Source: a virus
Lineage: Duplodnaviria > Heunggongvirae > Uroviricota > Caudoviricetes
Virus record (IMG/VR): IMGVR_UViG_2734482773_000006
DNA: 42,888 nt
Reading direction: 5' to 3' (one strand)
Of the stretch, positions 7,803 to 39,754 are shown piece by piece. The stretch's first letter is position 1, and each line of letters starts with the position of its first letter. The notes below the pieces were generated by a model that did not search any database, had not been told where the DNA came from, and saw nothing but the letters and a program-made list of their open reading frames with translations. A program made the translations under genes and the position numbers.

Positions 7803-8443
7803 TTGTCGGTGTACCTCTCTCGTTTGCTCAGTTGTTCAGGAATATGGTGCAGCAGCTCGCCGTCGCCGCAGTAAATTGCGGCGTGATTCGGCACTGATGA
7901 ACCAAAACAGCACAGCAGCACATCGCCCGGCTGTGCCGCTGACAACGGCACCTGATACAGCCCCGTCGCCTCCAGATTATCCAGATAGAGATTCTGGCCG
8001 TTACGCCACCAGTCATCCTCACGATAAAAGTCCGGCATCTCAATCCCCGCCAGATGATAAGCATCCCGGAACAGTGTGTAACAGTCCGTCACACCGTGCT
8101 CAAAGCGCCGCCCGGTGAGATGCGGCACACAGCGGAACTTATGAATCGTCCCCCGGCAGACCAGCCACCACGGCAAATCACTCTGCACCTGCAGCCGCCG
8201 GTCGGCCTCACTCAGCCAGGGCAGACCACCGGGGTGGCTGTGGACCAGCGCCACAATCTCACCCTGCATTTCTGCCTGCAGCCAGTCTTCCGGCGACATA
8301 CGGAAATACGCCTCCGGCTCACCGGAGATATTCACGCAGGGAAAATATCTTTCCCCCTCCGGCGTGCTTACCACGAAGCCGCACGACTCCGCTGGCGCAC
8401 ATCGCCGGGCGTGCGCCAGAATCGCTGATTCTGTCTGTGTCAT
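7700..8443 (-). CDS. K: Tail assembly protein K (JAB/MPN plus NlpC/P60-like)
   Basis: ORF begins MTQTESAILAHARRC; HSH and cysteine motifs; follows L. Confidence 0.9.
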   Translation of the reverse strand: MTQTESAILAHARRCAPAESCGFVVSTPEGERYFPCVNISGEPEAYFRMSPEDWLQAEMQGEIVALVHSHPGGLPWLSEADRRLQVQSDLPWWLVCRGTIHKFRCVPHLTGRRFEHGVTDCYTLFRDAYHLAGIEMPDFYREDDWWRNGQNLYLDNLEATGLYQVPLSAAQPGDVLLCCFGSSVPNHAAIYCGDGELLHHIPEQLSKRERYTDKWQRRTHSLWRHRAWRASAFTGIYNDLVAASTFV

Positions 8444-8448
8444 GGGAT

Positions 8449-9147
8449 TTACTGCGAAAGTTTGTTAATGGAAAGGAAGCCGCCAAAGTTGCCGACGTTA
8501 TTGCGGAACTTACAACCGCTCAGGCATTTGCTGCATTTATCCTTCGTGATATCGGACGTTGGCTGGTCATATTCATCCGCGACAGCCGGACCGCTATAAC
8601 CGCACTCGTCACCGCGATAGGTCCAGGTGCAGGTGTTGGCCAGCATGATACGTCCCGGAAAAACAGCGCCATCCGTTTCCGTCGGCGTGGACAGTACAAA
8701 GGAGGCACTCACCGCGCTCAGTTCGCTGCACTGCTCAATGCGCCAGCGGCTGATCACCTCCTGCTCCGGATCGGCGTAACTGTTTCCGTTGACGAAGTTC
8801 ACCGCATCCAGAAAACGGGCGTAAACCTTACGCCGGACCACCGTTCCGCCGACCAGACTCTGCATATCTTCCGCCATCCCGGTGACCATACCGTACAGGT
8901 TAGAAACCGTCAGCGTGGGGCGCATACTGGTGCCTTTGCCATTCAGTTCAAAACCGCTCCCCTGAATGGGATACGGCTGATACTGTCGCCCCTGCCAGGT
9001 GACCGGCTCACCTTTTTCGTTCTGCTCATTACAGAAAAAATAACGTTCTCCACCGACCTCTGTCAGGTCGATTTCCCAGAGCACCACGCTGGCCGACTGC
9101 TCCGCACGGGTGCATTCATTCAGTGTTTCCTGCCGGATATCCTGCAT
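8449..9147 (-). CDS. L: Tail tip protein L
   Basis: 232 aa, same length and position as lambda L. Confidence 0.9.
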   Translation of the reverse strand: MQDIRQETLNECTRAEQSASVVLWEIDLTEVGGERYFFCNEQNEKGEPVTWQGRQYQPYPIQGSGFELNGKGTSMRPTLTVSNLYGMVTGMAEDMQSLVGGTVVRRKVYARFLDAVNFVNGNSYADPEQEVISRWRIEQCSELSAVSASFVLSTPTETDGAVFPGRIMLANTCTWTYRGDECGYSGPAVADEYDQPTSDITKDKCSKCLSGCKFRNNVGNFGGFLSINKLSQ

Positions 9148-9476
9148 CAGTTCACCACCTGTTCAAACTCTGCGCTGAACTCAACACGCAGCATACTGAC
9201 CCGCGACGACCATTTTGCGCAGGTCACCTTTATCTGCCGCCACTCATAAGGCGGCGTCCACAGAAAGGCTTTCCAGCCCCCGTGCTCTTCCAGAAACGAC
9301 TCCAGTACCGTGGCCTCCTCACGGGGGACAGAAAGCGTCACGCTGTACGTTTTCAGGTTGGCATTCAGCCCGGCAGGCGCTCGCTGGGAATAGCCATCAC
9401 CAAAGCGCACCTTTCTTACAGAAGGGGCCGAAGCCACATCCATACCGGGTTTCACTTTCCAGCGGAAGGTTTTCAT
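9147..9476 (-). CDS. M: Tail tip protein M
   Basis: 109 aa, same length and position as lambda M. Confidence 0.9.
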   Translation of the reverse strand: MKTFRWKVKPGMDVASAPSVRKVRFGDGYSQRAPAGLNANLKTYSVTLSVPREEATVLESFLEEHGGWKAFLWTPPYEWRQIKVTCAKWSSRVSMLRVEFSAEFEQVVN

Positions 9477-12052
9477 CGTCCACCTCCGGAGAACAGGCCA
9501 CCATCACGCATCTGTGTCTGAATTTCATCACGGGCACCCTTGCGGGCCATGTCATACACTGCCTTCATCATCTGTGGACCTGGCAGACCATTCGTACCGT
9601 CGTTCTGAATCACCACGTGATTGTTCTGATTAAAATTAATGCCTTCAGCCCGCCGCATCTGCGCCGGACTTCCGGCACCGCCCACATAACCACCTTCCGC
9701 ATAGCCCCGCATCAGGCGGTACAGGTTGCCGACACCAATCCGGCTGGTTGCCTCCTTCGTGAAGACAAATTCACCACGGTGAACAATCCCCGCTGGCTCA
9801 TATTTGCCGCCGGTTCCCGTAAATCCCCCGGTCGCAAAATGGAATTTCGCCGCAGCGGCCTGAATGGCTGTACCGCCTGACGCGGATGCTCCACCACTGG
9901 CAGCACCGCCAATGGCGCTGCCGATACTCCCGACAATCCCCACCATTGCCTGCTTAAGCAGAATTTCTGTCATCATGGACAGCACGGAACGGGTGAAGCT
10001 GCGCCAGTTCTGCTCACTGCCGGTCAGCATCGCCGCCATATTCTGTGCAATACCATCAAAGGTCTGCGTGGCTGCACTTTTAAACTGCGACATACTGTCC
10101 GTGGCGCTCTCTTCCCACTCACTCCAGCCGGACTTCAGGCCTGCCATCCAGCTCCCGCGAAGCTGGTCTTCAGCCGCCCAGGTCTTTTTCTGCTCTGACA
10201 TGACGTTATTCAGCGCCAGCGGATTATCGCCATACTGTTCCTTCAGGCGCTGTTCCGTGGCTTCCCGTTCTGCCTGCCGGTCAGTCAGCCCCCGGCTTTT
10301 CGCATCAATGGCGGCCCGTTTTGCCCGTTGCTGCTGTGCGAATTTATCCGCCTGCTGCGCCAGCGCGTTCAGGCGCTCCTGATACGTAACCTTGTCGCCA
10401 AGTGCAGCCAGCTGGCGTTTGTACTCCAGCGTCTCATCTTTATGCGCCAGCAGGGATTTCTCCTGTGCAGACAACTGACGACGTTGCGCCGCCTCCTCCA
10501 GTACCGCGAACTGACTTTCTGCCTTCCACAAATCCCGGCGCTGCTGGCTGATTTTCTCATTCGCTCCGGCATGCTTCTCCAGCGTCCGGAGTTCTGTCTG
10601 AAGCATCAGCAGGGCAGCATGAGCACTGTCTTCCTGACGATCGCCCGCAGACACCTTCACGCCGGACTGTTTCGGCTTTTTCAGCGTCGCTTCATAATCC
10701 TTTTTCGCCGCCGCCATCAGCGTGTTGTAATCCGCCTGCAGGATTTTCCCGTCTTTCAGTGCCTTGTTCAGTTCTTCCTGACGGGCGGTATATTTCTCCA
10801 GCGGCGTCTGCAGCCGTTCGTAAGCCTTCTGCGCCTCTTCGGTATATTTCAGCCGTGATGCCTCAGACTCGGCCCAGTCCTTTGCTGCCATCTCTCTGGC
10901 CTTTTCAAGATCGGCCTGCAACGTGGCGGCTGAAAGCCCAAGTTGCGCATTCGCTCTGTCCTCCCATGCTCCCCGGAGATTGGCAAGAAATGCTGAGGTT
11001 TTACCGCGCCGGTGGCTCCGGCTCTGATACCACTGCCATTTTTTGTCCGCCTCATCAAAAGCCTTTTCTGCTTTCTCCAGCATTCCCTGGGCAGTGTCCG
11101 GGCGACCAATATCCAGCACCGAATCCCACATGGATTTGAATGCCCGTGCTGTCCTGTCTGCCCAGGTCTCCAGCGTGCCCATGTTCTCTTTCAGGCGGCG
11201 GGTCTGGTCATCAAACCCTTTCGTTGCGGCCTCGTTCGCCGCCTGCAATGCCCCGGCTTCATCTCCGGAACGCTGCAACTGAGCAACATACGCAATCTGC
11301 TCCGCCGTCACGTTATGGAACTGACGTGCCATCGCTGTCAGTCCCGACGTCGGGTCTGTGGTCAGCTTCCCGAAGGCTTCAGCGACCTTGTCCACCTCCA
11401 CGCCGGATGCAGAGGAGAAACGCGCCACACTCTGGCTGATCGCCTCAAACTGCTCACCACCACGCACACCGGCATTCACCAGCGCCGTCAGTGACTCGCT
11501 GGTCTGGTTAAACGTCAGCCCTGCCGCCTGCCCGGCTCTGGACAGGACCAGCATACGATCTGCCGTCAGTCCCGCCTGATTGCCGGAAAGGACCAGCGTT
11601 TTGTTGAAATCGGACAGGGTTGAGTTGCCCTGATACCAGGCATACGCCAGCGCACCGGTCGCCACCGCCAGCGAGGTGGCCCCCACCATCGGCAGGGTGA
11701 TCGCACCGGCAAGCCCCCTGAACATGGGGATCATCCCGCCGAAGGAGTCCTTAACCTGACCCCCCTGTTGCAGCAGGATCAGCCACGGGCTTTGCCCGCC
11801 TGCAAGCTGCGTGGCCACGTCGGTGAACTGTGCAGGCAGCATACGCATGGCGGCTTTATACTGCCCGACGGAAATCCCCGCTTTCTGTGCAGCCAGCGCC
11901 TGTCGGCTCAGCGACTGTTCAACGACTGCCGCTGTTTTTTTCGCATCAGTTTCCGTACCGGAAAAATGACGCCTGACTCTGGCCATCTGCTCGTCAAATC
12001 TGGCCGCATCCAGACTTAAATCAACGACCAGATCGCCTACCGGTTCAGCCAT
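9473..12052 (-). CDS. H: Tail tape measure protein H
   Basis: 859-aa ORF, coiled-coil rich, C-terminal Gly-rich segment; lambda H position. Confidence 0.95.
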   Translation of the reverse strand: MAEPVGDLVVDLSLDAARFDEQMARVRRHFSGTETDAKKTAAVVEQSLSRQALAAQKAGISVGQYKAAMRMLPAQFTDVATQLAGGQSPWLILLQQGGQVKDSFGGMIPMFRGLAGAITLPMVGATSLAVATGALAYAWYQGNSTLSDFNKTLVLSGNQAGLTADRMLVLSRAGQAAGLTFNQTSESLTALVNAGVRGGEQFEAISQSVARFSSASGVEVDKVAEAFGKLTTDPTSGLTAMARQFHNVTAEQIAYVAQLQRSGDEAGALQAANEAATKGFDDQTRRLKENMGTLETWADRTARAFKSMWDSVLDIGRPDTAQGMLEKAEKAFDEADKKWQWYQSRSHRRGKTSAFLANLRGAWEDRANAQLGLSAATLQADLEKAREMAAKDWAESEASRLKYTEEAQKAYERLQTPLEKYTARQEELNKALKDGKILQADYNTLMAAAKKDYEATLKKPKQSGVKVSAGDRQEDSAHAALLMLQTELRTLEKHAGANEKISQQRRDLWKAESQFAVLEEAAQRRQLSAQEKSLLAHKDETLEYKRQLAALGDKVTYQERLNALAQQADKFAQQQRAKRAAIDAKSRGLTDRQAEREATEQRLKEQYGDNPLALNNVMSEQKKTWAAEDQLRGSWMAGLKSGWSEWEESATDSMSQFKSAATQTFDGIAQNMAAMLTGSEQNWRSFTRSVLSMMTEILLKQAMVGIVGSIGSAIGGAASGGASASGGTAIQAAAAKFHFATGGFTGTGGKYEPAGIVHRGEFVFTKEATSRIGVGNLYRLMRGYAEGGYVGGAGSPAQMRRAEGINFNQNNHVVIQNDGTNGLPGPQMMKAVYDMARKGARDEIQTQMRDGGLFSGGGR

Positions 12053-18173: not shown

Positions 18174-21854
<3,681 letters not shown>

Positions 21855-21880
<26 letters not shown>

Positions 21881-22400
21881 TCAGCAACCCCGGTATCAGT
21901 TCATCCAGCGCGGCTGCTTTGTTCATGGCTTTGATGATATCCCGTTTCAGGAAATCAACATGTCGGTTTTCCAGTTCCGGAAAACGCCGCTGCACCGACA
22001 GGGGGATCCCGTCGAGAATACTGGCAATTTCACCTGCGATCCGCGACAGCACGAAAGTACAGAATGCGGTTTCCACCACTTCAGCGGAGTCTCTGGCATT
22101 CTTCAGTTCCTGTGCGTCGGCCTGCGCACGCGTAAGTCGATGGCGTTCGTACTCAATAGTCCCTGGCTGGAGATCTGTCTCGCTGGCCTGCCGCAGTTCT
22201 TCAACTTCCCGGCGCAGCTTTTCGTTCTCAATTTCAGCATCCCTTTCGGCATACCATCTTATAACGGCGGCAGAGTCATAAAGCACCTCATTACCCTTGC
22301 CACCGCCTCGCAGAACGGGCATTCCCTGTTCCTGCCAGTTCTGAATGGTACGGATACTCGCACCGAAAATGTCAGCCAGCTGCTTTTTGTTGACTTCCAT
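21855..22400 (-). CDS. nu1: Terminase small subunit Nu1
   Basis: 181 aa, begins MEVNKKQLADIFGASIRTIQNWQEQGMPV (HTH), lambda Nu1. Confidence 0.95.
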
Positions 22401-22640
22401 TGTTCATTCCACGGACAAAAACAGAGAAAGGAAACGACAGAGGCCAAAAAGCCCGTTTTCAGCACCTGTCGTTTCCTTTCTTTTCAGGGGGTATTTTAAA
22501 TAAAAACATTAAGTTACAACGAAGAAGAACGGAAATGCCTTAAACCGGAAAATTTTCATAAATAGCGAAAACCCGCGAGGTCGCCGCCCCGTAACCTGTC
22601 GGATCGCCGGAAAGGACCCGCAAAATGATAATAATTATCA
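22401..22640 (-). other. cos: cos packaging site (cosB, cosN, cosQ); 12-nt cohesive end at about 22579..22590
   Basis: Minus strand reads GGGCGGCGACCTCGCGGGTTTTCGCTATTTATGAAAATTTTCCGGTTTAAGGC, the lambda left end as recalled, preceded by the lambda right-end sequence CGGGTCCTTTCCGGCGATCCGACAGGTTACG. Confidence 0.85.
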
Positions 22641-22788
22641 TCTACATGTCACAACGTGCATCTACGCCATCAAACCACGTCAAATAATCAATTATGACGC
22701 AGGTATCGTATTAATTGATCTGCATCAACTTAACGTAAAAACAACTTCAGACAATACAAATCAGCGACACTGAATACGGGGCAACCTC

Positions 22789-28813: not shown

Positions 28814-30709
28814 TTAATTATTTTTCTTTAACTTGAAATTTCTTCCCATTGCTAGTGTTCTTCGAAGATTCGAATCATAAGCTGGTTGATAATATCTATC
28901 ATAAAAATCCTTAATTGTCTGATGGTAAGTATCCAGCATCAAACCATAAAACCCCCTAACCTTAAGATAATCCACCAAGGGAAATAAATAATCATCAGTC
29001 TGAACATCAGTATCAATATTATTTTTTTGTTTTTTAACTTCAAATTTGTATAAGTTTAACTCACCCTTATCCATCGTGCATGAAAAAAGGTCGTCAAAAA
29101 TCAAATCAATTTCTGTCATAGGAACTCGTTCTTTTCCAGACATTATAGGTAGAATATCAATACCTAAGAGCGAACCTAATACAAAGTCGTAATGAAGCGA
29201 AATCACTGAGTCATTCGATGTCGAGTTGCCTTTGATAAATACTCTACTTAGTGCCGAGTCAAAAACATTCTCAACTCTCTCTCTCGTCATGTTTGCGACA
29301 TCTACAACTCCCATATCACGAGAAGCTTTTATTGTGATTTCATCTATAAATGCTTTGGAATCTAGTGAATGTAAAAACAACATGAAGTTATCTAACTGTT
29401 CAGAGCATTTAATAGCCACCATAAGATTTTCGTATATATCTTTTTTATACTCAATCGGTAAATTTGCTACCGCAAAAGCAGCATAAAATTCTTGCACTGA
29501 TTTATGCAGAAAAACATACCTATTATTTCCCTCAGGTTGGATAAGGCAAGTTATCTCAATAAGATCATCTATAAAGTTTGATGCATCTTCTTTAAGATAA
29601 CCTTCTGTTTCAATAGCATCTTCAGCATATCTAAGCAACTCCTCTCCCCAAAACTCAAATTTCTCCTCAATCAGTGCGTTATAGCAAATAGCTGAAAAAC
29701 ACAATTTAGCTTTTTCACCAATAATGTTTGATTTTTTCTCGCGCGTATATACTTTTATTTTATCATGCCTTGCATATAAGGTGTCAAAGAGGCTTCGATA
29801 AAACTCTATTATATTATTTGGAATATCATTCATATAAGGATAACAATAATACAAAAGAGTAACTAAAATTGGATTGCAAATAGTTCCCTCAAGTTCTTCT
29901 TTATCACATAGTAAATCCGCCAAGACTTTAAACGAGGCATCACTACTTGAGAATCTGTCATTTTTCGATAAAGAATGAAGAATACAAATCTTATCAGAAA
30001 TATTTAGCTTATCTATAAAAATATTATACACATCAGTAGTATAACATATATCTGTATTTGGTCTCGTTGTTGCGATAATTGGTGTGTTAAAATGATAATG
30101 AATGTTTTTTATTTCATTCATCATCATAGTTCGCTCTTCATGTTTAACCTCATCAAATCCATCCAACATTAAAACGACTCTTTGGGATTGCAGTAATATT
30201 TTCAAGCTATCCTCTGAACACCCCACACCAAATGAATTAAGAATGTCTGCCAGATAAGCAATAATATTTGCATTCTTCACCCTTCTTAATTCAATAAAAA
30301 AAGGCATCCGTTCTGATTTTTTTATTTCCTCGCTAAACAACTTGCGTAAAATAGTACTTTTCCCTTGCCCCGCTATACCGACTATATTTACAATACCATG
30401 AAATGGTAAAGTGACCCCATCTTTTATAACGACCTTGTCTTTATTAGATGCCACCTCAACAGTTAACGGATAATAAATATCATCTAAAAAAATATCATAA
30501 TCAGCGTTGTGCAAAGTTCTCATTTTCAGAGATGGTAGCACATGCTTTCTTAAATAATTTTCTCTTCCGAGGGGATCATTTAATTGTTCGAGTATAACCT
30601 TGCCTTCATCTAGGTCCCTAGCCCAAGGTTTAGAGAGCAATACTTCTGTTATTTTTTCCGCAGCTTTTCCTACTGTGCTATTAATAATAGTCGCAAGAAA
30701 CTCATCCAT
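28814..30709 (-). CDS. NACHT/STAND-family P-loop NTPase (bacterial NLR-like), candidate single-gene anti-phage defence protein
   Basis: ORF track 28814..30766 (650 aa); likely start at internal Met (30709) preceded by GGTGA; Walker A GIAGQGKST (ORF aa 130-138), Walker B VVLMLDGFDE (197-206), TTRP (233-236); visibly AT-rich gene with AT-rich non-coding flanks. Confidence 0.7.
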   Translation of the reverse strand: MDEFLATIINSTVGKAAEKITEVLLSKPWARDLDEGKVILEQLNDPLGRENYLRKHVLPSLKMRTLHNADYDIFLDDIYYPLTVEVASNKDKVVIKDGVTLPFHGIVNIVGIAGQGKSTILRKLFSEEIKKSERMPFFIELRRVKNANIIAYLADILNSFGVGCSEDSLKILLQSQRVVLMLDGFDEVKHEERTMMMNEIKNIHYHFNTPIIATTRPNTDICYTTDVYNIFIDKLNISDKICILHSLSKNDRFSSSDASFKVLADLLCDKEELEGTICNPILVTLLYYCYPYMNDIPNNIIEFYRSLFDTLYARHDKIKVYTREKKSNIIGEKAKLCFSAICYNALIEEKFEFWGEELLRYAEDAIETEGYLKEDASNFIDDLIEITCLIQPEGNNRYVFLHKSVQEFYAAFAVANLPIEYKKDIYENLMVAIKCSEQLDNFMLFLHSLDSKAFIDEITIKASRDMGVVDVANMTRERVENVFDSALSRVFIKGNSTSNDSVISLHYDFVLGSLLGIDILPIMSGKERVPMTEIDLIFDDLFSCTMDKGELNLYKFEVKKQKNNIDTDVQTDDYLFPLVDYLKVRGFYGLMLDTYHQTIKDFYDRYYQPAYDSNLRRTLAMGRNFKLKKNN

Positions 30710-31097
30710 TTTTTCACCACATTCATTAACCAATACGTGGTGCATTCTTACAAGACTCAGTAACAATTGTCAATCATAGGTTTTCGCATGATTGCAAAAC
30801 GCCATAAACAATTGTAGCACCATAATTTTAAACACTATATAATATACAACCTTCCTACAAGCATTCAGTACATCGCTTAATCACAGGGCTTGAATATATA
30901 GTAAGGAATCGATATTAATCACCTCATCTACTTTAAACATCTTACACACCTATAATTTATAATAGTCAACACGAGGTCATCATATTAAACATGCAATTAC
31001 AAACATTCATTTTTATATAAATTTTCATGATTTAACCGTAGGGCGACGGTAATAAATTTCATATACAAGGATTTAAGCTCCCATACGTTTTCTATTA

Positions 31098-31277
31098 TTA
31101 AAAATAACATACCGTTCGCCAGACCTTACCATCAATGACTAAGATTCCTGCCCGCGCCATTTTAGCCGCAGCCTGATTTATGCTGGTTACGGTTGCGCCT
31201 GTTACCGCGGCAACGTCCTGTGCACAGAAGCTCTTATGCGTCCCCAGGTAATGAATAATTGCCTCTTTGCCCGTCAT
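31098..31277 (-). pseudogene. ren: Truncated ren gene (59 codons), broken at the junction with the AT-rich island
   Basis: Read by eye: MTGKEAIIHYLGTHKSFCAQDVAAVTGATVTSINQAAAKMARAGILVIDGKVWRTVCYF then stop; matches the lambda Ren N-terminus as recalled and ends ~37 codons early; ATG overlaps P stop. Confidence 0.6.
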
Positions 31278-31975
31278 ACACTTGCTCCTTTCAGTCCGAA
31301 CTTAGCTTTAATTTCTGCGATCTTCGCCAGAGCCTGTGCACGATTTAGAGGTCTACCGCCCATAACAGGAAGTTGTTTTACTGGTTCAGGTATCGTCTCA
31401 CCACGGTTAATTCGCGCTGTCATACAGGCCAGTTCATCGGCAGCCTTGCGCCGTAATTCCGCGTCAGTCAACGCATTGGCCCGCATGTTCTGGTACAGGT
31501 TGGTAACCAACCAGTAGTGCGCGTTTGATTTCCATGGATAAGACTCTGCGTCCGGATACAGGCCACGCTTCCGGCAATACTCGTAAACCATATCAACCAG
31601 CTCGCTGGCGTTTGGCAGCCCGGCGGTAACGGATGTTTCTTCCCGGCACCAGGCAACAAACTGCCCGGGAGATGGCAGGAATGGTCGATTCTGCCGACGG
31701 GCTACGCGCATTCCTGCGTTAACCTGTTCCATTGTGGTGATCCCATTTTCCCGGAAAGCCAGCACCCACTGGCGGCGGATTTCGTTCAGTTCGTTCTGGT
31801 CCCGGTTAGCCAAGCTCGCCGGGAAAGTTGCCAGTAACTGGCTGAACACACCGTTGATGATCTGCGCTACCTGCTGTACCTGCGGCTTTTCGTCGTACTG
31901 TTCCGGCATGTTGTTGGCGATCCGACGCATCTGCTCACGGTCAAAGTTAACCATCTGTGCGGCGATGTTTTTCAT
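31274..31975 (-). CDS. P: Replication protein P (DnaB helicase loader)
   Basis: 233 aa, MKNIAAQMVNFDREQMRRIANNMPEQYDEKPQVQQ, lambda P. Confidence 0.95.
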   Translation of the reverse strand: MKNIAAQMVNFDREQMRRIANNMPEQYDEKPQVQQVAQIINGVFSQLLATFPASLANRDQNELNEIRRQWVLAFRENGITTMEQVNAGMRVARRQNRPFLPSPGQFVAWCREETSVTAGLPNASELVDMVYEYCRKRGLYPDAESYPWKSNAHYWLVTNLYQNMRANALTDAELRRKAADELACMTARINRGETIPEPVKQLPVMGGRPLNRAQALAKIAEIKAKFGLKGASV

Positions 31976-32901
31976 AAATCCACCCCGTAAATCCAGTCAG
32001 TGTTTGTCAGGTCGAGTTTTGGTTTTCTGGCTGCCACGCCAGCCTGTTGCTTGTTACGGTTGATTTCGAGCTGGGTCCACTTGTCGCGGAGTTTAGCCGG
32101 ACTCAGCACGTTACCGGACCAGAAGTTGTCCTGGCATGCCCAGCGGAACAGCACGCACATGTCGCGGTGGTTACGTCCATCACGTTCACGCATCAGGCGG
32201 ATATCGTTAGCCCACCCTGCAAAATTCGGTTTTCTGGCTGATGGCGCGATGGTCTTCACCATGTCAAACATCCACTCTGCGGCGGTCAGGTCTTCTGCTG
32301 TCCCCCACCTGCTGCCGCTCTGAATTGCAGCATCCGGTTTCACCACAGGAAGATCGTTTTCTGGTTGGTCAGAGGATTCGCCAGAATTCTCGGACGAAAA
32401 AGGTTTTATATTGTCTTTTGTTAGTTTGTCTTTTGTGTTTACCTGATTCGGGTAAACGCCTTTACCTGATTTGGGTAAACTTTTTTTACCTGATTCAGGT
32501 AAATTTACCTCTTTCAGGTAAACTTTATTTTTCTTACCTGATTCGGGTAATGTTGACCATTCACTGACCACATTATTAATGCCGGTATTCCGCCCGCTCT
32601 GAATAAAAATCCCACGCTTTACCAGAACACTTTTTGCAGCAGAACACTTGTGCGGCAATATCCCGGTTAATTCGGAAAGTTGCTCGTTGCTAACCCAATC
32701 CAGTTTTTTATTAAAGCCATATGTTTTGCGCATGACAGCCAGAAAGACCAGAAGCTGGTGCTGTGTTAATCCGGCCAGCATCACAGCTTCCAGCAACTCA
32801 TTTGCAATGCGCGTATAACCATCGTCGAGATCTGCCACGCGCCGCTCCTTTTGTGCCACATCCGGCACTGGAAAATTGAATATCTCAGCAGTGTTTGCCA
32901 T
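31972..32901 (-). CDS. O: Replication initiator protein O
   Basis: ORF track 31972..32991; probable start at internal MANTAEIFNFP with GGAGG upstream; contains the ori iterons; C-terminus lambda O-like (pairs with P). Confidence 0.85.
   Translation of the reverse strand: MANTAEIFNFPVPDVAQKERRVADLDDGYTRIANELLEAVMLAGLTQHQLLVFLAVMRKTYGFNKKLDWVSNEQLSELTGILPHKCSAAKSVLVKRGIFIQSGRNTGINNVVSEWSTLPESGKKNKVYLKEVNLPESGKKSLPKSGKGVYPNQVNTKDKLTKDNIKPFSSENSGESSDQPENDLPVVKPDAAIQSGSRWGTAEDLTAAEWMFDMVKTIAPSARKPNFAGWANDIRLMRERDGRNHRDMCVLFRWACQDNFWSGNVLSPAKLRDKWTQLEINRNKQQAGVAARKPKLDLTNTDWIYGVDL
32395..32552. repeat. Replication origin: five ~17-bp iterons (TACCTGATTCGGGTAAA-like) plus adjacent AT-rich segment, inside the O gene
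   Basis: Five near-identical copies spaced ~24 bp apart, each an inverted repeat TTACC..GGTAA; seen as repeated LPESGKK in the O protein. Confidence 0.75.
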
Positions 32902-32987
32902 AATTCCTCCCGCAATGAGTGTGTTACGATTTGCACCTGAAAGTCGGTTCTGTTCGCGCAGACCGGCTTTCGCCATTTCCGAACCTG

Positions 32988-33533
32988 TCATATTGCCCCC
33001 AGCATGGTGGTGACCATCGCCATCAGTGGACCAGCCAAATCCGGGTCCACACGAAACATCGACACAATGCCTTCACTCATCTCCTTCAGTTTCTGGTGGC
33101 GTGGTGCGTTGAGAATGACAGCCTGTTTTGCCTCACTGAGTTCCTTTTCCATTTCAGCCAGCCGAGCCATGTAGCTATCCTGCTCAACCAGGTGGCCGCG
33201 ATATTCCAGCGGTAGTACCGCCAGAATTGCCGGGGTCAGTTCACGCACGTTATTTCGGTATTTTTCAGAATCGAATTTGTTATCGAGGAAGCGGAACAGC
33301 TTCTGGCGTGCACGGCTGACATCATCAGGGAAATCGATGGTGCCGCCGCCCTGCTCCCGATACTCATTCACAATGAGTGCGGCAACAACATCCTGATTAT
33401 CTGCAGCCGACCAGGCGCGAACGGCATCACGGATTTTTTCGTGGCCTGGCGCCTGTTTTGTTTGAGAACGATTTATCACCGCAGTCGGGCTAAATCCGCT
33501 AGTCTGTTGGTATGTAAGTGGTTGCATAGTCAT
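32988..33533 (-). CDS. YdaT-like protein (CII functional analogue of Rac-type immunity regions)
   Basis: 181-aa ORF just downstream of the cro-like gene; motifs NEYREQGGG and LTPAILAVLPLEYR resemble Rac YdaT as recalled. Confidence 0.55.
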   Translation of the reverse strand: MTMQPLTYQQTSGFSPTAVINRSQTKQAPGHEKIRDAVRAWSAADNQDVVAALIVNEYREQGGGTIDFPDDVSRARQKLFRFLDNKFDSEKYRNNVRELTPAILAVLPLEYRGHLVEQDSYMARLAEMEKELSEAKQAVILNAPRHQKLKEMSEGIVSMFRVDPDLAGPLMAMVTTMLGAI

Positions 33534-33557
33534 TGCCTTATCAGTTAACGCCGCAGT

Positions 33558-33785
33558 TTAGGCGGCAGAATTACTCGCGTTAAACAATGGTGCGAGGTCG
33601 GGACGAATATCTGCTGGTTTAATCTTTCCACCAGTGGCTGAGACAATTTTCATTACATAGCGGGCATCAATTCCGCCACCGTGTAGCCAACGCCAAACTG
33701 TGGGTTGGGCTACACCGCATAGATCTGCCAGTCGTTTTTGACTACCTGTAATACTGATTGCGAGTTGAATGGTTTGATTTGTCAT
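33558..33785 (-). CDS. cro: Cro/YdaS-like HTH repressor
   Basis: ORF track 33558..33791 (TTG); probable ATG at third codon; HTH GVAQPTVWRW; divergent from cI. Confidence 0.75.
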   Translation of the reverse strand: MTNQTIQLAISITGSQKRLADLCGVAQPTVWRWLHGGGIDARYVMKIVSATGGKIKPADIRPDLAPLFNASNSAA

Positions 33786-33895
33786 TATCAATTCCTATTG
33801 GTATTGCAATGAATGAATAATAGCAATGCGTATTAATCCAAGCAATAGCAAAACGTGTTTTGACCATCAATACGCAAGCGTATAAATTAAAACTT
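33786..33895. promoter_or_regulatory. Right operator/promoter region (OR, PR, PRM-like) between divergent cro and cI
   Basis: 110-bp divergent intergenic region with repeated (T/A)TAGCAAT / TTGCAAT motifs, also found in the presumed OL region. Confidence 0.5.
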
Positions 33896-34588
33896 ATGAA
33901 AAAAGAAACTCTTGCTGATCGCTTAAACCTAGCGATGGAACAATCTGGAATGTCTCAAGGCGCTCTTGCAAAGGCGTCTGGCGTAGCTCAACCCACAATC
34001 TGGAGACTGACAAGCGGCAACGCTCGCGGCTCAACAAAAATTGTTGAAATAGCTAATGCATTGGGTGTTCGAACAGAATGGCTCTCATCAGGCATAGGCC
34101 CGATGAGAAATGACGGTCAACAATCAGGGAAGCCTGCTGTCAGCCATTCAAAATACTTCAAGATTGACGTTCTTGATATAGAAGTGAGTGCCGGGCCGGG
34201 AGTCATCAACCGTGAGTTTGTAGAAGTTCTACGCTCGGTTGAGTACTCGTTTGACGATGCTCGTCACATGTTCGATGGTAGGAAGGCAGAAAATATCCGC
34301 ATCATTAACGTACGCGGTGACAGCATGTCAGGAACGATCGAACCAGGTGATCTGCTGTTCGTTGATATCACGGTTAAATCTTTCGACGGTGATGGTATCT
34401 ATGCGTTTCTGTATGACGACACCGCCCATGTAAAGCGCCTGCAAATGATGAAGGATAAGCTACTGGTTATCTCTGATAACAAGAGCTACTCACCGTGGGA
34501 CCCGATCGAGAAAGACGAGATGAACCGGGTATTCATATTCGGTAAGGTTATTGGGAGCATGCCGCAGACGTACAGAAAACACGGATAA
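33896..34588 (+). CDS. cI: CI-type prophage repressor (N-terminal HTH, C-terminal S24 LexA-like peptidase domain)
   Basis: ORF track 33860..34588 (TTG); probable ATG at MKKETLADRLN (may be leaderless as lambda cI); HTH GMSQGALAKASGVAQPTIWRL; S24-like GDSM and K residues. Confidence 0.85.
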   Translation: MKKETLADRLNLAMEQSGMSQGALAKASGVAQPTIWRLTSGNARGSTKIVEIANALGVRTEWLSSGIGPMRNDGQQSGKPAVSHSKYFKIDVLDIEVSAGPGVINREFVEVLRSVEYSFDDARHMFDGRKAENIRIINVRGDSMSGTIEPGDLLFVDITVKSFDGDGIYAFLYDDTAHVKRLQMMKDKLLVISDNKSYSPWDPIEKDEMNRVFIFGKVIGSMPQTYRKHG

Positions 34589-34670
34589 TCAGCCGCGTGT
34601 TGATGAGGCTTTTGGGTAATACGCTGAAGAAAATACCTTATAAAAAATAACATTACGGGAAAGGCAAAAA

Positions 34671-34934
34671 ATGAGTAATAAAACACTTGTTAAAAAATCA
34701 AATAACTGTGTCGATGCATACGCCGACGCGTTTGGCTACTCTTCGTTTGGTGACGGCTCTCAGCGCCTAGGTTCAATTTCTTTTTTTCATAATGTAACTG
34801 AATGGCCTGTTGATGAAAGTGACGATGTTGAGAACATAAAGTACAACATTGCAACCATTAGAATGCCCGAAGAATTGATGCTTAAATTGGCTGACTTCAT
34901 TCGCGACCAGCATGACAAAGCTAAAACAAACTAA
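34671..34934 (+). CDS. Hypothetical 87-aa acidic protein, first gene downstream of cI (rexA position)
   Basis: ORF track; same strand as cI, before the terminator at ~35466; no family recognised. Confidence 0.45.
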   Translation: MSNKTLVKKSNNCVDAYADAFGYSSFGDGSQRLGSISFFHNVTEWPVDESDDVENIKYNIATIRMPEELMLKLADFIRDQHDKAKTN

Positions 34935-34946
34935 TCGTAATTAATT

Positions 34947-35390
34947 ATGAAACACGATTATTACGAAGCTCCAAACCTAAATGATAAAATTGCAAAGGCG
35001 GCAAAATCATTTTGTTTGCACTCCAGTGCGTCTTCCCAGCTAGCAGGTATATCTGGAAAAAGATGGGACATGCTACAATCAAGTGGTAGCAGTGGGTCTG
35101 GGAGTGATAACATGCCTGAAAAAGTTGCAAAACTGGAGTCCGATGTTGCTCATATCAAACGAGACGTTGATGAACTTAAAACAGACGTTAAAGCTATCGA
35201 CAAAAATATGATAACTATTCTTGCACGTCTGGACTCTATAAAAGAATCCTTAACAAACAAGCCATCAAGTGATGCTGTCGATAGAAAGATTTCAGACGCA
35301 AAGCTTGCGGTATTGCTTGGTGTTCCAGCAATCATCGCTGCAGGAACAGGACTTTATAAGCTATCAATGTACTTTTTCTTTAGTGCTTAA
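34947..35390 (+). CDS. Hypothetical coiled-coil protein with C-terminal transmembrane anchor (rexB position); probable shorter 92-aa form from 35112
   Basis: ORF track 147 aa; internal ATG at 35112 has GGAG upstream; C-terminal hydrophobic helix AVLLGVPAIIAAGTGLYKLSMYFFF; heptad-like charged region. Confidence 0.45.
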   Translation: MKHDYYEAPNLNDKIAKAAKSFCLHSSASSQLAGISGKRWDMLQSSGSSGSGSDNMPEKVAKLESDVAHIKRDVDELKTDVKAIDKNMITILARLDSIKESLTNKPSSDAVDRKISDAKLAVLLGVPAIIAAGTGLYKLSMYFFFSA

Positions 35391-35465
35391 GAAAATGCTC
35401 GCACCCTTGCATTAGGTAAAGCGATTTTTCATTCCCCATTACCCTCGCTCTTAACCAATCATCTA

Positions 35466-35494
35466 AACCCGGCCACCGTGCCGGGTTTTCTTTT
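35466..35494 (+). terminator. Rho-independent terminator ending the cI-operon transcript
   Basis: Hairpin CCCGGCCACCGTGCCGGG followed by TTTTCTTTT, read by eye. Confidence 0.55.
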
Positions 35495-35589
35495 GCCCTC
35501 CCCTCATCACACACCGTTCAAAAAACCACCACGACCTCACTTCAGTTATCGCTATGCGATGCAAGTCACAAAATTAATTCTTTTTGCTA

Positions 35590-35700
35590 TCAAACATTTA
35601 ATATCAAAACACATCAACTAATAGCAATAAGTATTGATATCACCAATAGCAATAGCTATTATCACCATATCGCAACAACACAACGATACGGCAACCACCT
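35590..35700 (+). promoter_or_regulatory. Putative left operator/promoter (OL/PL)
   Basis: Cluster of ATAGCAAT / TATCACC repeats shared with the cro-cI intergenic region, upstream of the gam-bet-exo operon. Confidence 0.4.
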
Positions 35701-35855
35701 GATTCACCGTTGCGATGACCGCTTAGATCCGCAGCTTGAATTTCAGCAGGCTTCGGGGAGTGCGAGGGATGAAACGGACGCGTGAACGTCGGTGTGACCA
35801 GCTGAAATCAACTCAACATTTCATACCTTAGTCGCTTCAACGAGGCGGCTTAGTT

Positions 35856-36146
35856 ATGACAACCGGCGGCCATCCACCGCCTGAATACGCGCAGAAGTCT
35901 TTATATGTTCAGCAGCCCAGCTTACGGGCAGGAGTTTTTATGGTTCATCAACATTACGGAACGCAGACCGTTAATCGCGGTGCGGTCATGCCAGGAATGC
36001 TGGTCAAACGCAAAGATGGTACCTGGACTGCATCAGCTAATTTACGCGGACGACTTTATCTGCATCGCGGCATTGAGCGCACTTATACCCGTGACTTGCT
36101 CGTGGAAGTTTTTCTCGACGGACGCGGCAACGGTCTGAATCACTAA
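35856..36146 (+). CDS. Hypothetical 96-aa protein, first sizeable ORF of the pL operon
   Basis: ORF track; SD-like GAGGCGG upstream; in frame with gam and separated from it by one TAA codon. Confidence 0.4.
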   Translation: MTTGGHPPPEYAQKSLYVQQPSLRAGVFMVHQHYGTQTVNRGAVMPGMLVKRKDGTWTASANLRGRLYLHRGIERTYTRDLLVEVFLDGRGNGLNH

Positions 36147-37986: not shown

Positions 37987-38165
37987 AACATCCTCACGAT
38001 AATATCCGCGTAGGCACGATCACTTTCGTCTACTCCGTTACGAAGCGAGGCTGGGTATTTCCCGGCCTTTCTGTTATCCGAAATCCCCTGAAAGCACAGC
38101 GGCTGGCTGAGGAGATAAATAATAAACGGGGAGCTGTATGCACAAAGCATCTCCCGTTCAGTTAA
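37977..38165 (+). CDS. Lambda orf60a-like small protein
   Basis: 62 aa, [30 protein letters not shown]; position after exo as in lambda. Confidence 0.7.
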
Positions 38166-38329
38166 GAACGAGTATCGAGATGGCACATAGCCTCGCTCAA
38201 ATTGGAGTCAGGTTTGTGCCAATACCAGTAGAAACAGACGAAGAATTTCATACGTTAGCCGCATCCCTTTCACAAAAGCTGGAAATGATGGTGGCGAAAG
38301 CAGAAGCAGATGAGAGAGACCAGGTATGA
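38138..38329 (+). CDS. Lambda orf63-like small protein
   Basis: 63-aa ORF in the lambda order. Confidence 0.65.
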   Translation: MHKASPVQLRTSIEMAHSLAQIGVRFVPIPVETDEEFHTLAASLSQKLEMMVAKAEADERDQV

Positions 38330-38405
38330 CAACCACGGAATGCATTTTTCTGGCAGCGGGCTTCATATTCTGTGTGCTTATGCTTGCCGACATGGGACTT
38401 GTTCA

Positions 38406-38621
38406 ATGACACCTCAGCAGGAAAACGCCCTTCGCAGCATTGCCCGTCAGGCTAATTCTGAAATCAAAAAAGCCAGACAGCAGTTTCCGGATAAAAACGT
38501 CGATGACATTTGCCGTAGCGTACTGAAGAAGCACCGCGAAACGGTAACGCTGATGGGATTCACACCGACTCATTTAAGCCTGGCAATCGGCATGTTAAAC
38601 GGCGTCTTTAAGGAACGATGA
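38406..38621 (+). CDS. Lambda orf61-like small protein
   Basis: ORF track 38310..38621; probable start at internal MTPQQENALRSIARQ. Confidence 0.6.
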   Translation: MTPQQENALRSIARQANSEIKKARQQFPDKNVDDICRSVLKKHRETVTLMGFTPTHLSLAIGMLNGVFKER

Positions 38622-38719
38622 ACATGAAAAGCAAAATCATCAGGGAGCTACAGGCTCCTTTTTTATTATTCGCATTCACCCTCAAGCGTATTAACCAACA
38701 ATTCAGGGATTAATGGAAG

Positions 38720-38941
38720 ATGGCAGACATCATTGATTCAGCATCAGAAATTGAAGAATTACAGCGCAACACAGCAATAAAAATGCGCCGCCTGAACCAC
38801 CAGGCTATATCTGCCACTCATTGTTGTGAGTGTGGCGATCCGATAGATGAACGAAGACGCCTGGTCGTTCAGGGTTGTCGGACTTGTGCAAGTTGCCAGG
38901 AGGATCTGGAGCTTATCAGTAAACAGAGAGGTTCGAAGTGA
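38720..38941 (+). CDS. DksA/TraR-family C4 zinc finger protein (lambda orf73-like)
   Basis: 73 aa with CxxC...CxxC (CCECGDPI...CRTCASC). Confidence 0.8.
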   Translation: MADIIDSASEIEELQRNTAIKMRRLNHQAISATHCCECGDPIDERRRLVVQGCRTCASCQEDLELISKQRGSK

Positions 38942-39151
38942 GCGAAATTAACTAGAAGCCAAAGATAAAATCATCGCTGAGCAGGAGAAAATCGCTAACG
39001 GAGAAAAGACAGTAAGTCAGTATATGAAAACCGCATGATATCATCAGATAAAAATCGGTCGTAAAGCGAAATATTAATACCAGAACAAACGAGTCGAGGT
39101 AAATTATATTACCTCGATAAATTAACTAAAACTTGCCCGCTATATACTATA

Positions 39152-39754
39152 TCATTCAGTATCATCACGCGCGGTCTGTGCATATGTCACTACCGCACCT
39201 AATATATTAATTTTCTTTTCAACATAGATAATATTATCGTACTCATAATTGCCATACGGATAGCAAATGCGAATATTCTCATGTAGATCGGGGTCATCCA
39301 CCTCAGCTCCAGAACAACTTTTTGAACTACCGGAAGTATACCGATACGGTGCAACATAAGACGATGTCTCTCCAGGCAAAAAATAAGTTAGTGTCGTAAG
39401 GGGTATAATCAGAAAAAATCCTGCAAATATGCACATCCCTGCATAAACCTTAAGGTATGCTGACAGACTCTTCCAGCCTCTTTGTTTTACTATCCCCTTC
39501 TTAACCCAAAACAGAGATAACAGAAAAGCTATTCCCATGCTAAACAGAATGTAATAGTGGGATATACTCTGATTAAGAAACGTGACCCTGTAGATATCTG
39601 CCCGCCACCAGAAGAAAAGGAAAATAAAGATCAGCCCTGAAACTGTCATGCAAATCAAATAAGGATACGAATCTTTTTTCATGTTTAGCGCCCATAAAAT
39701 TTTTCCTGACCCGGACAAATTTACCATCCATTTTTTGCGCAGAAAATAGCTCAT
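39152..39754 (-). CDS. Hypothetical integral membrane protein (three predicted TM helices plus Cys-containing C-terminal domain), AT-rich moron
   Basis: 200-aa ORF on the opposite strand to neighbours; hydrophobic segments LICMTVSGLIFIFLFFWW, YYILFSMGIAFLLSLFWV, VYAGMCIFAGFFLIIPLTTLTYFL; start codon uncertain. Confidence 0.5.
   Translation of the reverse strand: MSYFLRKKWMVNLSGSGKILWALNMKKDSYPYLICMTVSGLIFIFLFFWWRADIYRVTFLNQSISHYYILFSMGIAFLLSLFWVKKGIVKQRGWKSLSAYLKVYAGMCIFAGFFLIIPLTTLTYFLPGETSSYVAPYRYTSGSSKSCSGAEVDDPDLHENIRICYPYGNYEYDNIIYVEKKINILGAVVTYAQTARDDTE

Follow-up and report, generated by a model that had tools for sequence, protein, structure and literature searches.

The region between positions 32,988 and 34,588 of the 42,888-nucleotide stretch of viral DNA analysed here (hereafter the window) raises the question of what kind of switch a phage carries when the genes divergent from its repressor gene belong to families named after bacterial toxins and are followed by replication genes of the lambda type. 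The region controls the choice between lysis and lysogeny in a lambda-like prophage common in E. coli, and in all probability it works as a bistable immunity switch of the standard lambdoid kind, made up of three exchangeable modules. The ORF list gives a divergent cI / cro-cII unit (Table 1), with the genes at the positions assigned to them in the preliminary description, whose view of the region as a mosaic lambdoid immunity region is borne out. These modules were previously described in phages ST104, phi80 and lambda, and the region is an ordinary one. Of 5426 complete E. coli genomes, 717 contain the module; 10 isolated phages contain it too, with the genes annotated as cI/Cro/cII. It is 97–99% identical in these genomes and phages, and is functional in nature. 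It is thus widespread and already annotated, and the equivalence of YdaS and YdaT with Cro and CII is known from published work (PMC5917428, PMC8630535, PMC9986795). Several structural genes of this prophage copy are marked as frameshifted in RefSeq, so that the copy itself may be defective.

Table 1. Genes, promoters, operators and terminator in and around the immunity region (coordinates are those of the window).
Feature	Coordinates	Strand	Description
P helicase loader	31274–31975	−	97% identical to lambda P; Phage_lambda_P 7.4e-62
O replication initiator, hybrid	31972–32991	−	Diverged N-terminal origin-binding domain and lambda C-terminus
phi80-type CII analogue, 179 aa	32988–33527	−	Pfam YdaT family (PF06254)
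Cro analogue, 75 aa	33558–33785	−	Pfam YdaS family (PF15943); small HTH protein, divergent from repressor gene
PR (predicted)	33817–33845	−	TTGCTT - 17 nt - TATTAT; would drive cro, cII analogue, O and P; read from sequence, script-checked
OR1 (predicted)	33819–33834	.	AATAGCAATGCGTATT; in PR spacer, overlaps PR −10 by 4 bp
OR2 (predicted)	33844–33859	.	AATAGCAAAACGTGTT; 25 bp from OR1; overlaps PR −35 by 2 bp, adjoins PRM −35
PRM (predicted)	33860–33888	+	TTGACC - 17 nt - TAAATT; promoter scan, coordinates checked
OR3 (weaker call)	33869–33884	.	AATACGCAAGCGTATA; dyad of AATACGC half-site, overlaps PRM
cI repressor, 230 aa	33896–34588	+	N-terminal HTH (434-repressor-like), C-terminal S24 autocleavage domain; ORF open from 33860
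Two small ORFs, 87 and 147 aa	34671–35390	+	Co-oriented with cI, at lambda rexA/rexB position
Intrinsic terminator	35465–35488	+	Ends cI operon, just upstream of OL; 9-bp stem with 6 GC pairs, then T-run
OL/PL region	35576–35662	+	Contains OL3, OL2, OL1 and PL
OL3 (predicted)	35576–35591	−	GATAGCAAAAAGAATT; weaker site
OL2 (predicted)	35620–35635		0-mismatch match to 16-mer
PL (predicted)	35634–35639 (−35), 35657–35662 (−10)	+	TTGATA - 17 nt - TATTAT; promoter scan 10/12
OL1 (predicted)	35645–35660		0-mismatch match to 16-mer; 25 bp from OL2

The repressor is of the S24 type, as had been proposed. In the profile search it matched Pfam HTH_3 (1.8e-6) and Peptidase_S24 (E = 1.3e-18), and its matches in the PDB were the N-terminal domain of the 434 repressor (E~1e-5) and also UmuD'. 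Its VSA99-G100, GDS143M and VK180RL motifs align with A111-G112, S149 and K192 of lambda CI, and the cleavage site and the Ser/Lys residues are invariant in four homologues. The protein is 86% identical to the cI of Salmonella phage ST104 and 82% identical to that of the Klebsiella phage ST11-VIM1phi8.2, with identical HTH residues, vs 25% identity to lambda cI. By its sequence, the repressor has the specificity of the ST104 immunity type, a repressor specificity type of Casjens and co-workers (PMC2629481). HK022, named as the immunity prototype in the GenBank note to ST104, was considered and set aside, its cI being only 40% and its Cro only 34% identical.

The cro-like protein belongs to the YdaS family (Pfam YdaS_toxin, E = 9.6e-15, 54.6 bits vs a cut-off of 30), with a PDB match to Xfaso-1 Cro (3bd1, E~1e-3). 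It is 85% identical to Cro of the Klebsiella phage and 69% to that of ST104, but only 32% to Rac YdaS; its earlier likening to Rac YdaS rather than to lambda Cro therefore holds at the level of the Pfam family, but the likeness is a distant one. The stretch GVAQPT(I/V)WR is common to the Cro analogue and the recognition helix of cI.

The CII analogue lies between the cro analogue, which it directly follows, and the replication initiator. Its ORF covers 32988–33533 on the minus strand (181 aa), the likely true start being the ATG at 33527, which gives a protein of 179 aa; the homology breakpoint with PhiR47_2 is located exactly at this ATG. The 181-aa protein matched Pfam YdaT_toxin with E = 2.4e-29 (102 bits vs a cut-off of 21), and over its full length it matched PHROG 163, 'CII-like transcriptional activator' (7e-67). 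A PDB match was obtained with the YdaT of CP-933P (8bt1, E = 2e-4), and residues 30–132 of the 179-aa protein can be aligned by sequence to 8bt1 and 3c4r. The Arg of recognition helix alpha3, Arg60 in CP-933P YdaT (PMC9986795), is conserved in the phmmer alignment (qkiFRWld vs qklFRFld of 8bt1). Its identity with phi80 CII is 67%, over the full length, and that with Rac YdaT 35%. The preliminary description was thus right to place it in the YdaT family and not with lambda CII, but imprecise in calling it Rac-type, which on these comparisons describes a distant family-level resemblance only; the closest characterised relative is phi80 CII. The identity to phi80 cII and the position between cro and O, together with what is known of the YdaT homologues (PMC8630535, PMC9986795, PMC11879457), suggest by analogy that the protein acts as an activator of lysogeny establishment.

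The replication genes have the lambda likeness that had been claimed for P and for the C-terminus of O. O matched Pfam Phage_rep_O (1.1e-33), alignment with lambda O puts its start at M31 (ATG at ~32901), and by BLASTP its C-terminal half is ~99% identical to lambda O. The gene contains its own iterons, tandem repeats of TTTACCTGATTCGGGTAAAC at 32438–32531. The three modules would accordingly be an immunity cassette of ST104 specificity (cI residues 1–46, OR, cro and OL), a phi80-type CII of the YdaT family, and a replication module in which O has its own, diverged origin-binding N-terminal domain, with iterons to match, fused to a lambda C-terminus that suits the lambda-type P. Boundaries of this kind are seen in the comparison with PhiR47_2, in which the cI C-terminus and YdaT are the same, whereas the cI N-terminus and cro differ and the OR repeats are entirely different: one clean recombination boundary falls at about cI codon 46 and another at the start codon of cII, and together they illustrate immunity-cassette swapping. 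Furthermore, among 80 IMG/VR loci encoding a CII at least 98% identical, only two upstream types were found: that of the window, at 62 loci, and another, at 15 loci, which has no 12-mers in common with the window and is presumably that of PhiR47_2.

The operators of the cassette were sought in the motif, ATAGCAAT / TTGCAAT, thought to be shared by the cro-cI intergenic region and the presumed OL region. One part of this proposal stood: ATAGCAAT is the left arm of a predicted 16-bp operator, AATAGCAAT-N3-TATT, so that the unit is a 16-bp pseudo-dyad and not an 8-mer half-site. TTGCAAT is not part of it; the motif is not enriched in the 42.9 kb (8 copies vs 11.8 expected), and neither it nor the palindrome ATTGCAAT (OR copy at 33803–33810) is conserved as an operator in ST104 or the Klebsiella phage. 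ATAGCAAT occurs four times in the window vs 1.66 expected, a number reached in 9 of 100 shuffles, and three of the four copies (33820, 35621 and 35646) lie in OR and OL. For the 16-mer AATAGCAATNNNTATT, 10 matches with at most 2 mismatches were counted vs 1.22 expected (0/100 shuffles), all of them within 33750–33859 or 35620–35660, in or beside OR/OL. When a position weight matrix built only from the sites of ST104 and the Klebsiella phage was scored at the ~86,000 positions of the window, the top 8 positions were all in OR or OL.

Six related pseudo-dyads are thus predicted over PR/PRM and PL, the arrangement of a lambdoid OR/OL. The three OR sites have a 25-bp phasing, and OL has two sites 25 bp apart with a weaker third 44 bp upstream; an independent repeat finder returned the same 25-bp (OL) and 50-bp (OR) register. 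The overlaps of 4 bp with the −10 and 2 bp with the −35 element are identical, in mirrored arrangement, at PR and PL. OR1 matches the 16-mer without mismatch and ranks first in the matrix scan, OR2 has 2 mismatches and the third-best score, and the OL sites occupy ranks 2, 4 and 5. A phylogenetic footprint of the window, ST104 and the Klebsiella phage, in which the cI HTH is identical, showed conserved operators and variable spacers: OR1 is conserved amid variable flanking sequence, OR2 is identical in both phages, and equivalent OL sites with the 25-bp spacing are present in ST104 (5361 and 5386, plus 5316) and in the Klebsiella phage. The third OR site is self-complementary at 12 of 16 positions and was paired with OR1 by the repeat finder (74% over 19 nt), but the matrix did not recover it; it too is identical in both phages, a conservation that could reflect the PRM promoter and not an operator.

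The predicted promoters fit this layout. PR and PL have a common geometry and a common GCTATTAT −10 context, and PR is conserved in ST104 and the Klebsiella phage; PR was not listed by the promoter scan because its −35 TTGCTT agrees with the consensus at only 3 of 6 positions. The predicted PRM start (~33895) immediately precedes the cI ATG at 33896, and no Shine-Dalgarno sequence was found upstream of this ATG, so that the cI mRNA would be leaderless or nearly so; a leaderless repressor mRNA has been shown experimentally in CP-933P (PMC8630535). The two small ORFs downstream of cI, which match PHROG 4231 and 3556, families with no assigned function, and gave no significant PADLOC match, are by position probable prophage-expressed cargo; PhiR70_1 and PhiR47_2 have different cargo there. 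The PL leader (35668–35860) was also considered, and rejected, as a put-like or otherwise structured RNA, or as a nut site. It gave no Rfam match at gathering score or E ≤ 1, had a fold z-score of −1.58, and showed no similarity to the PR operon, HK022 or Rac KilS.

Given the observed gene families, catalytic residues and module boundaries, and the geometry, enrichment and cross-phage conservation of operators and promoters, we infer binding, activation and cleavage events of the lambdoid kind. Dimers of cI would bind the 16-bp pseudo-dyads (half-site AATAsnnA), occluding PR from OR1 and OR2, and PL from OL1 and OL2. OR2 is centred about −42/−43 from the predicted PRM start, and cI bound there would probably also activate its own promoter. 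OR3, which lies over PRM, may serve for negative autoregulation or be the preferred site of Cro, which would bind the operators of cI through the recognition helix that the two proteins have in common. By analogy with phi80 cII, CP-933P YdaT and Rac YdaT, the CII analogue would establish cI synthesis by activating a PRE-like promoter of reverse orientation close to the junction of cro and cII. SOS induction would operate via RecA, which would stimulate cI to cleave itself at A99-G100, with S143 and K180 as the catalytic dyad.

Two other readings of the data would undo this scheme. One takes the cro-like and 179-aa genes for a YdaS/YdaT toxin-antitoxin pair without a role in lysis/lysogeny regulation, as implied by the Pfam names ('Bacterial toxin YdaS/YdaT') and by the RefSeq product name 'toxin YdaT domain-containing protein'. 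We give it practically no credence. The genes stand exactly at the cro and cII positions, between a divergent S24 repressor and O/P, and are the first two of the PR operon; the likeness of the second is to a genetically defined phi80 cII, its PHROGs class is that of a CII-like activator with no PADLOC match, and the literature has shown DNA binding and PRE activation without toxin-antitoxin behaviour (PMC5917428, PMC8630535, PMC9986795, PMC11879457). The other holds that the ATAGCAAT repeats are no operators and arose by chance in AT-rich promoter DNA. TTGCAAT is indeed at background, and the 8-mer taken alone is not significant window-wide, but this view too is very improbable, since the 16-mer is enriched 8-fold and confined to OR/OL, the sites are phased at 25 bp and mirrored over PR and PL, and phages from three host genera with the cI HTH in common have kept the sites but not the spacers between them. 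Moreover, in PhiR47_2, whose cI N-terminus and cro are different, other repeats take their place throughout.

A further question concerns the mode of action of CII, for which no PRE or binding site was located. The cro/cII junction (33400–33700) contains no match to the published YdaT box, TTGATT-N6-AATCAA, at 3 or fewer mismatches. The sole match in the 42.9 kb with at most 1 mismatch, TTGATA-ATGACA-AATCAA at 33774–33791, lies over the cro start codon, which could suggest that CII acts through it, mainly by repressing PR/cro or by regulating host genes rather than by activating PRE. In PhiR47_2, where the same YdaT goes with an unrelated cro, the PR leader contains a match with 2 mismatches; the recognition helix QKIFRWLD resembles QKLFRFLD of CP-933P YdaT; and in the racR-ydaS intergenic region Rac YdaT covers the ydaS promoter, ribosome-binding site and first codons when bound, with the host gene rcsA also under its control (PMC11879457). 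We nonetheless consider this unlikely: there is no comparable box near cro in phi80, HK225, HK639 or CobraSix, whose CIIs are 53–73% identical, 2-mismatch matches arise by chance in AT-rich regulatory DNA (two are present in lambda), and the match at 33774–33791 is partly explained by the cro codons for M-T-N-Q. The box is, besides, compatible with activation of PRE too, and because of its lack of conservation it is kept as a low-probability lead only. A dual role is unlikely as well, namely that a phi80-type CII both establishes repressor synthesis and binds this box, blocking cro translation or PR elongation, as hinted by the binding of Rac YdaT over the ydaS promoter and ribosome-binding site (PMC11879457); if true, CII in this N-less lambdoid lineage would be an activator and a roadblock that commits the phage to lysogeny. 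Two other candidate sites were discarded. A search for a lambda-style TTGC-N6-TTGC site gave just one TTGC-N7-TTGC (~33522–33536), noticed by eye and taken as chance because PhiR47_2 lacks it and it straddles a junction that is not conserved, and nothing corroborates the inverted repeat GATTTA-N15-TAAATC in the 5′ end of cII (33470–33496).

With CII taken as an activator of cI synthesis within a lambdoid switch, each module can be compared with its known relatives. ST104 immC and ST11-VIM1phi8.2, the closest relatives for cI and Cro, have the same OR1/OR2/OR3 blocks, OL equivalents, 25-bp spacing and PR/PRM geometry. In these phages, however, the cassette is accompanied by classical CII/C1 and by P22-type or other replication genes, whereas in the window it is joined to a phi80-type CII and lambda-type O/P; moreover, ST104 has an N-like gene 24, whereas the window has no N gene. 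The phi80 early region (cI, gene 30, cII, M3 RNA, genes 15/14) has, apart from its similar CII, the same order of cro analogue, CII, O-like and P-like genes, and in both a GC hairpin with the cro stop codon precedes cII. It differs in its cI, its Cro analogue (gene 30; a weak pair match, E = 0.001) and its operators, which are unrelated in specificity, as well as in its replication proteins, which in the window are of the lambda type.

Lambda has the same divergent cI and cro-cII-O-P arrangement, three OR sites at 23–25 bp spacing, OR2 beside the −35 of PRM, a leaderless cI mRNA (predicted in the window), an S24 cI with Ala-Gly/Ser/Lys, and cargo and a terminator between cI and OL, besides the near-identical P and O C-terminus. 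Unlike lambda, the window has a distant cI, Cro and CII of other families, and a different operator sequence, O N-terminal domain and iterons. Furthermore, no cIII and no N or nut were found in the prophage, and control of CII stability and early antitermination may therefore differ from those of lambda. Rac (racR-ydaS-ydaT) and CP-933P (paaR2-ydaS-ydaT) resemble the window in the Pfam families of the Cro and CII analogues and in a gene order that continues with a replication initiator (PMC8630535, PMC9986795, PMC11879457). The left operon of the window, moreover, includes a gene for a division inhibitor of the KilR kind, with 34% identity to Rac KilR. The identity of the regulators, however, is only 32–35%; RacR and PaaR2 lack the S24 domain present in the cI of the window, and the YdaT box published for the ydaS/ydaT junction was not detected at the corresponding position.

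The names 'toxin YdaT/YdaS' given by Pfam and RefSeq are thus misleading here, since the two genes are cII and cro analogues in a functional and very common type of E. coli lambdoid phage, and the region matters little beyond this point of annotation. What the present analysis adds is modest, namely a map of the likely repressor-binding sites. A literature search for the operator sequence returned nothing relevant. The map predicts that these E. coli phages have the same immunity specificity as Salmonella ST104-type phages and some Klebsiella phages, and such a specificity, common to phages of several genera, would matter for superinfection immunity among their prophages.

The 1.8-kb stretch compared (32900-34700) matches the E. 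coli 2014C-3307 chromosome at 100% identity, and the window is made up almost wholly of lambda/DLP12-like prophage. RefSeq frameshift marks in the tape-measure gene (~8010-10570), a head-tail joining gene (~18270-18480) and rzpD (~22190-22650) of the identical 2014C-3307 record may reflect a defective prophage copy or assembly errors. In the immunity region, profile searches placed the 181-aa protein in the YdaT family and the cro-like protein in the YdaS family, as the preliminary description had proposed; the lack of significant YdaT similarity that would have counted against it was thus not observed. The S24-type cI that it had named was likewise borne out, both by the Peptidase_S24 match and by residues A99-G100, S143 and K180, which align on the cleavage site and Ser/Lys catalytic dyad of lambda CI. 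Its label 'Rac-type', though, is right for family membership but not for closeness: Rac YdaT and YdaS are 35% and 32% identical to the 181-aa and cro-like proteins, respectively, whereas the phi80 cII product is 67% identical, over the full length, to the 179-aa form of the CII analogue (ATG 33527). Judged from these identities, the likeness to Rac holds at the family level only. The 179-aa form also matched PHROG 163 ('CII-like transcriptional activator', 7e-67) and the crystal structures 8bt1 (CP-933P YdaT) and 3c4r; the alignment includes the recognition-helix Arg, which is conserved throughout the family (PMC9986795).

Features of the immunity region and its flanks, with Pfam E-values
Feature	Coordinates	Strand	Remarks
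P	31274-31975	-	Downstream of 181-aa ORF; Phage_lambda_P, 7.4e-62
O	31972-32991	-	Downstream of 181-aa ORF; Phage_rep_O, 1.1e-33
181-aa ORF (CII analogue)	32988-33533	-	YdaT_toxin, 2.4e-29
cro-like ORF, 75 aa	33558-33785	-	YdaS_toxin, 9.6e-15
OR1 (proposed)	33819-33834		AATAGCAATGCGTATT
OR2 (proposed)	33844-33859		AATAGCAAAACGTGTT
OR3 (proposed)	33869-33884		AATACGCAAGCGTATA; dyad of AATACGC arm, also in OR1
PR		-	TTGCTT-17-TATTAT
PRM			TTGACC-17-TAAATT
cI	33896-34588	+	Divergent from cro-like ORF; frame open from 33860; HTH_3, 1.8e-6; Peptidase_S24, 1.3e-18
Small ORF	34671-34934		Right of cI
Small ORF	34947-35390		Right of cI
Intrinsic terminator	35465-35488		Right of the small ORFs
OL3 (proposed)	35576-35591	-	Weaker
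OL2 (proposed)	35620-35635		AATAGCAATAAGTATT
OL1 (proposed)	35645-35660		14/16 positions self-complementary
PL (PL-like promoter)	35634-35662		TTGATA-17-TATTAT; right of terminator
KilR-like gene, then gam, bet, exo			Right of PL

A repeated motif, ATAGCAAT / TTGCAAT, had been proposed as common to OR, the cro-cI operator region, and OL, the operator region at PL. The window holds four copies of ATAGCAAT, three of them at 33820, 35621 and 35646, a raw count that alone is not significant. Extended to the 16-bp pseudo-dyad AATAGCAAT-N3-TATT, with exact copies at 33819, 35620 and 35645, the motif gave 10 matches with up to 2 mismatches against 1.22 expected (0/100 shuffles), all inside 33750-33859 or 35620-35660. 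When a weight matrix was trained solely on sites of Salmonella phage ST104 and Klebsiella phage ST11-VIM1phi8.2, the eight best scores among ~86,000 window positions all fell in OR or OL, and an independent repeat finder recovered the same register. The first half of the motif thus stands, as part of an enriched pseudo-dyad, but TTGCAAT does not: it occurs at background level, and its OR copy, the palindrome ATTGCAAT (33803-33810), is not conserved. OR1, OR2 and OR3 are phased by exactly 25 bp, which is also the OL1-OL2 spacing. ST104 and the Klebsiella phage retain the three OR blocks, with variable spacers between them, and have equivalent operator pairs, 25 bp apart, ahead of their left operons; the OR of PhiR47_2, which has a different cI N-terminus and cro, carries completely different repeats. 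The recognition helices of the window's cI and Cro share GVAQPT(I/V)WR, consistent with recognition of the same operators by both. A 9-mer, TCAAAACAC / GTGTTTTGA, is common, on opposite strands, to 35604-35612 (between OL3 and OL2) and 33855-33863 (OR2/PRM -35 junction), and may be due to chance (roughly 0.1 expected) or to a further protein contact.

PR and PL are built alike: in each, 4 bp of the -10 lie within the proximal operator and 2 bp of the -35 within the second. The PRM -35 begins one base past the end of OR2. The predicted PRM start (~33895) adjoins the cI ATG (33896), ahead of which there is no Shine-Dalgarno sequence, implying a leaderless cI mRNA as in lambda; such an mRNA has been demonstrated for CP-933P (PMC8630535). 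We observe the sequence features with their statistics and conservation, as well as the module boundaries; they are best explained by a canonical lambdoid switch, all of whose binding and regulatory events we infer. That is, cI at OR1/OR2 and OL1/OL2 would turn off PR and PL and, at OR2, would probably stimulate PRM, OR3 would be an autorepression site or the preferred Cro site, RecA-stimulated cI self-cleavage would lead to prophage induction, and the phi80-type CII would establish repression via a reverse promoter.

The closest cI and Cro are those of ST104 (86% and 69% identical, respectively) and the Klebsiella phage (82% and 85%), and the window and both phages have essentially the same cI HTH (MSQGALAKASGVAQPTIWRLTSGNARGSTKIVEIANALGV). 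The recognised repressor specificity types include 'ST104' (PMC2629481). Unlike the window, both phages have a classical CII/C1 and no YdaT-family protein there. PhiR47_2 has a CII 98% identical to the window's, and its cI agrees with the window's from residue ~47 on, but it differs in the cI N-terminus, OR and cro (46%). The right-hand breakpoint of this homology is exactly ATG 33527, which supports 33527 as the true CII start and shows the cassette boundaries. Downstream, the lambda-like P and O C-terminus described earlier were confirmed, P being 97% identical to lambda P and O ~99% over the C-terminal ~140 residues, against ~45% over the N-terminal origin-binding part; iterons of its own lie within the O gene (repeats resembling TTTACCTGATTCGGGTAAAC, 32438-32531). 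On these comparisons we read the region as a mosaic of ST104-type immunity cassette, phi80-type CII, hybrid O and lambda P. The RefSeq O start (32991) overlaps the CII stop, and the lambda O alignment begins at M31 (ATG ~32901), a start that would leave a ~86-nt gap after the CII gene. On the plus strand of this gap (32949-32985), TTTCGCC follows an imperfect hairpin; at this position phi80 and HK639 have an annotated oop-like 'M3 RNA', to which only weak similarity (22 nt) was seen.

No PRE or CII site was located in the window. The published YdaT box is TTGATT-N6-AATCAA in CP-933P and ATGATT-N6-AATCAA in Rac (PMC9986795, PMC11879457), and the cro/cII junction gave no match to it. The window's single match with at most 1 mismatch to TTGATT-N6-AATCAA, TTGATA-ATGACA-AATCAA (33774-33791, minus strand), lies across the cro start codon. 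The PR leader of PhiR47_2, a phage with the same CII and an unrelated cro, contains a match with 2 mismatches (L005 3939-3956), but lambda itself has chance matches of that quality; since no comparable box occurs in phi80, HK225, HK639 or CobraSix, the one over the cro start is a low-probability lead and probably due to chance. Directly upstream of the CII gene is a GC hairpin, GCCGCC-TAAACT-GCGGC (33550-33566, minus strand), whose loop contains the cro stop codon. An equivalent, GCCGCCTAAC(C)GGCGGC, precedes cII in phi80, HK225, HK639 and CobraSix despite their differing cro genes; PhiR47_2 and mEp237 lack it. The hairpin might act as a tR1-like signal or belong to PRE. The cro-cII intergenic region of PhiR47_2 (L005 ~3640-3690) contains a boxA-like CGCTCTTTAAC, and its left operon has no annotated N gene.

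The left operon opens with a gene (35856 or 35940 to 36146) for a KilR-like division inhibitor that shares 34% identity with Rac KilR. From PL up to this gene (within 35634-36146) we found neither an N-like antiterminator gene nor nut/boxA. The PL leader (~190-270 nt) is 97-100% conserved in PhiR70_1 and PhiR47_2; it matched nothing in Rfam, its fold is not significant (z = -1.58), and it shows no similarity to HK022 or Rac KilS. Downstream of cI, at the rexAB position, the ORFs of 87 and 147 aa matched PHROG 4231 and 3556, with no significant PADLOC match; a hydrophobic tail forms the C-terminus of the 147-aa protein. At this position PhiR70_1 has three different hypothetical genes and PhiR47_2 a GevT/GevA toxin-antitoxin pair, and these differing contents make the position a cargo hot-spot. 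Directly downstream of ren (31098-31277, marked truncated by RefSeq), the nin region encodes a NACHT-domain (STAND NTPase) protein, ~630-650 aa long (28814-30766, minus strand). It had no PADLOC match and is a candidate for an anti-phage defence function inserted there. In the early-left operon, directly after exo and a DUF1317 gene, a DGQHR-domain protein (RefSeq; 38138-39202, plus strand) may have a DNA-modification-sensing or defence function.

Of 5426 complete E. coli genomes, 717 contain this 1.8-kb module (coverage at least 80%, identity above 95%). Ten isolated phages carry it too, with identities of 97-99% (PhiR70_1, Lambda_4C10, 4A7 (two records), D2, 1W, 3W, Perceval, PhiR30_1 and PhiR68_2); several isolated-phage records label the genes cI, Cro, cII and O. 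Among 80 IMG/VR loci with a CII at least 98% identical, 77 had enough upstream sequence to be counted, 62 with the window's cro/OR type and 15 with a second type. YdaS and YdaT are established equivalents of Cro and CII (Casjens 2003 as cited in PMC5917428; PMC8630535; PMC9986795; PMC11879457), and YdaT homology to phi80 CII has been noted (PMC8630535). The original observation is thus confirmed and its interpretation partly supported, for a kind of system that is already known; a literature search found no paper describing this operator set, and the map of its sites adds a small new detail to that system.
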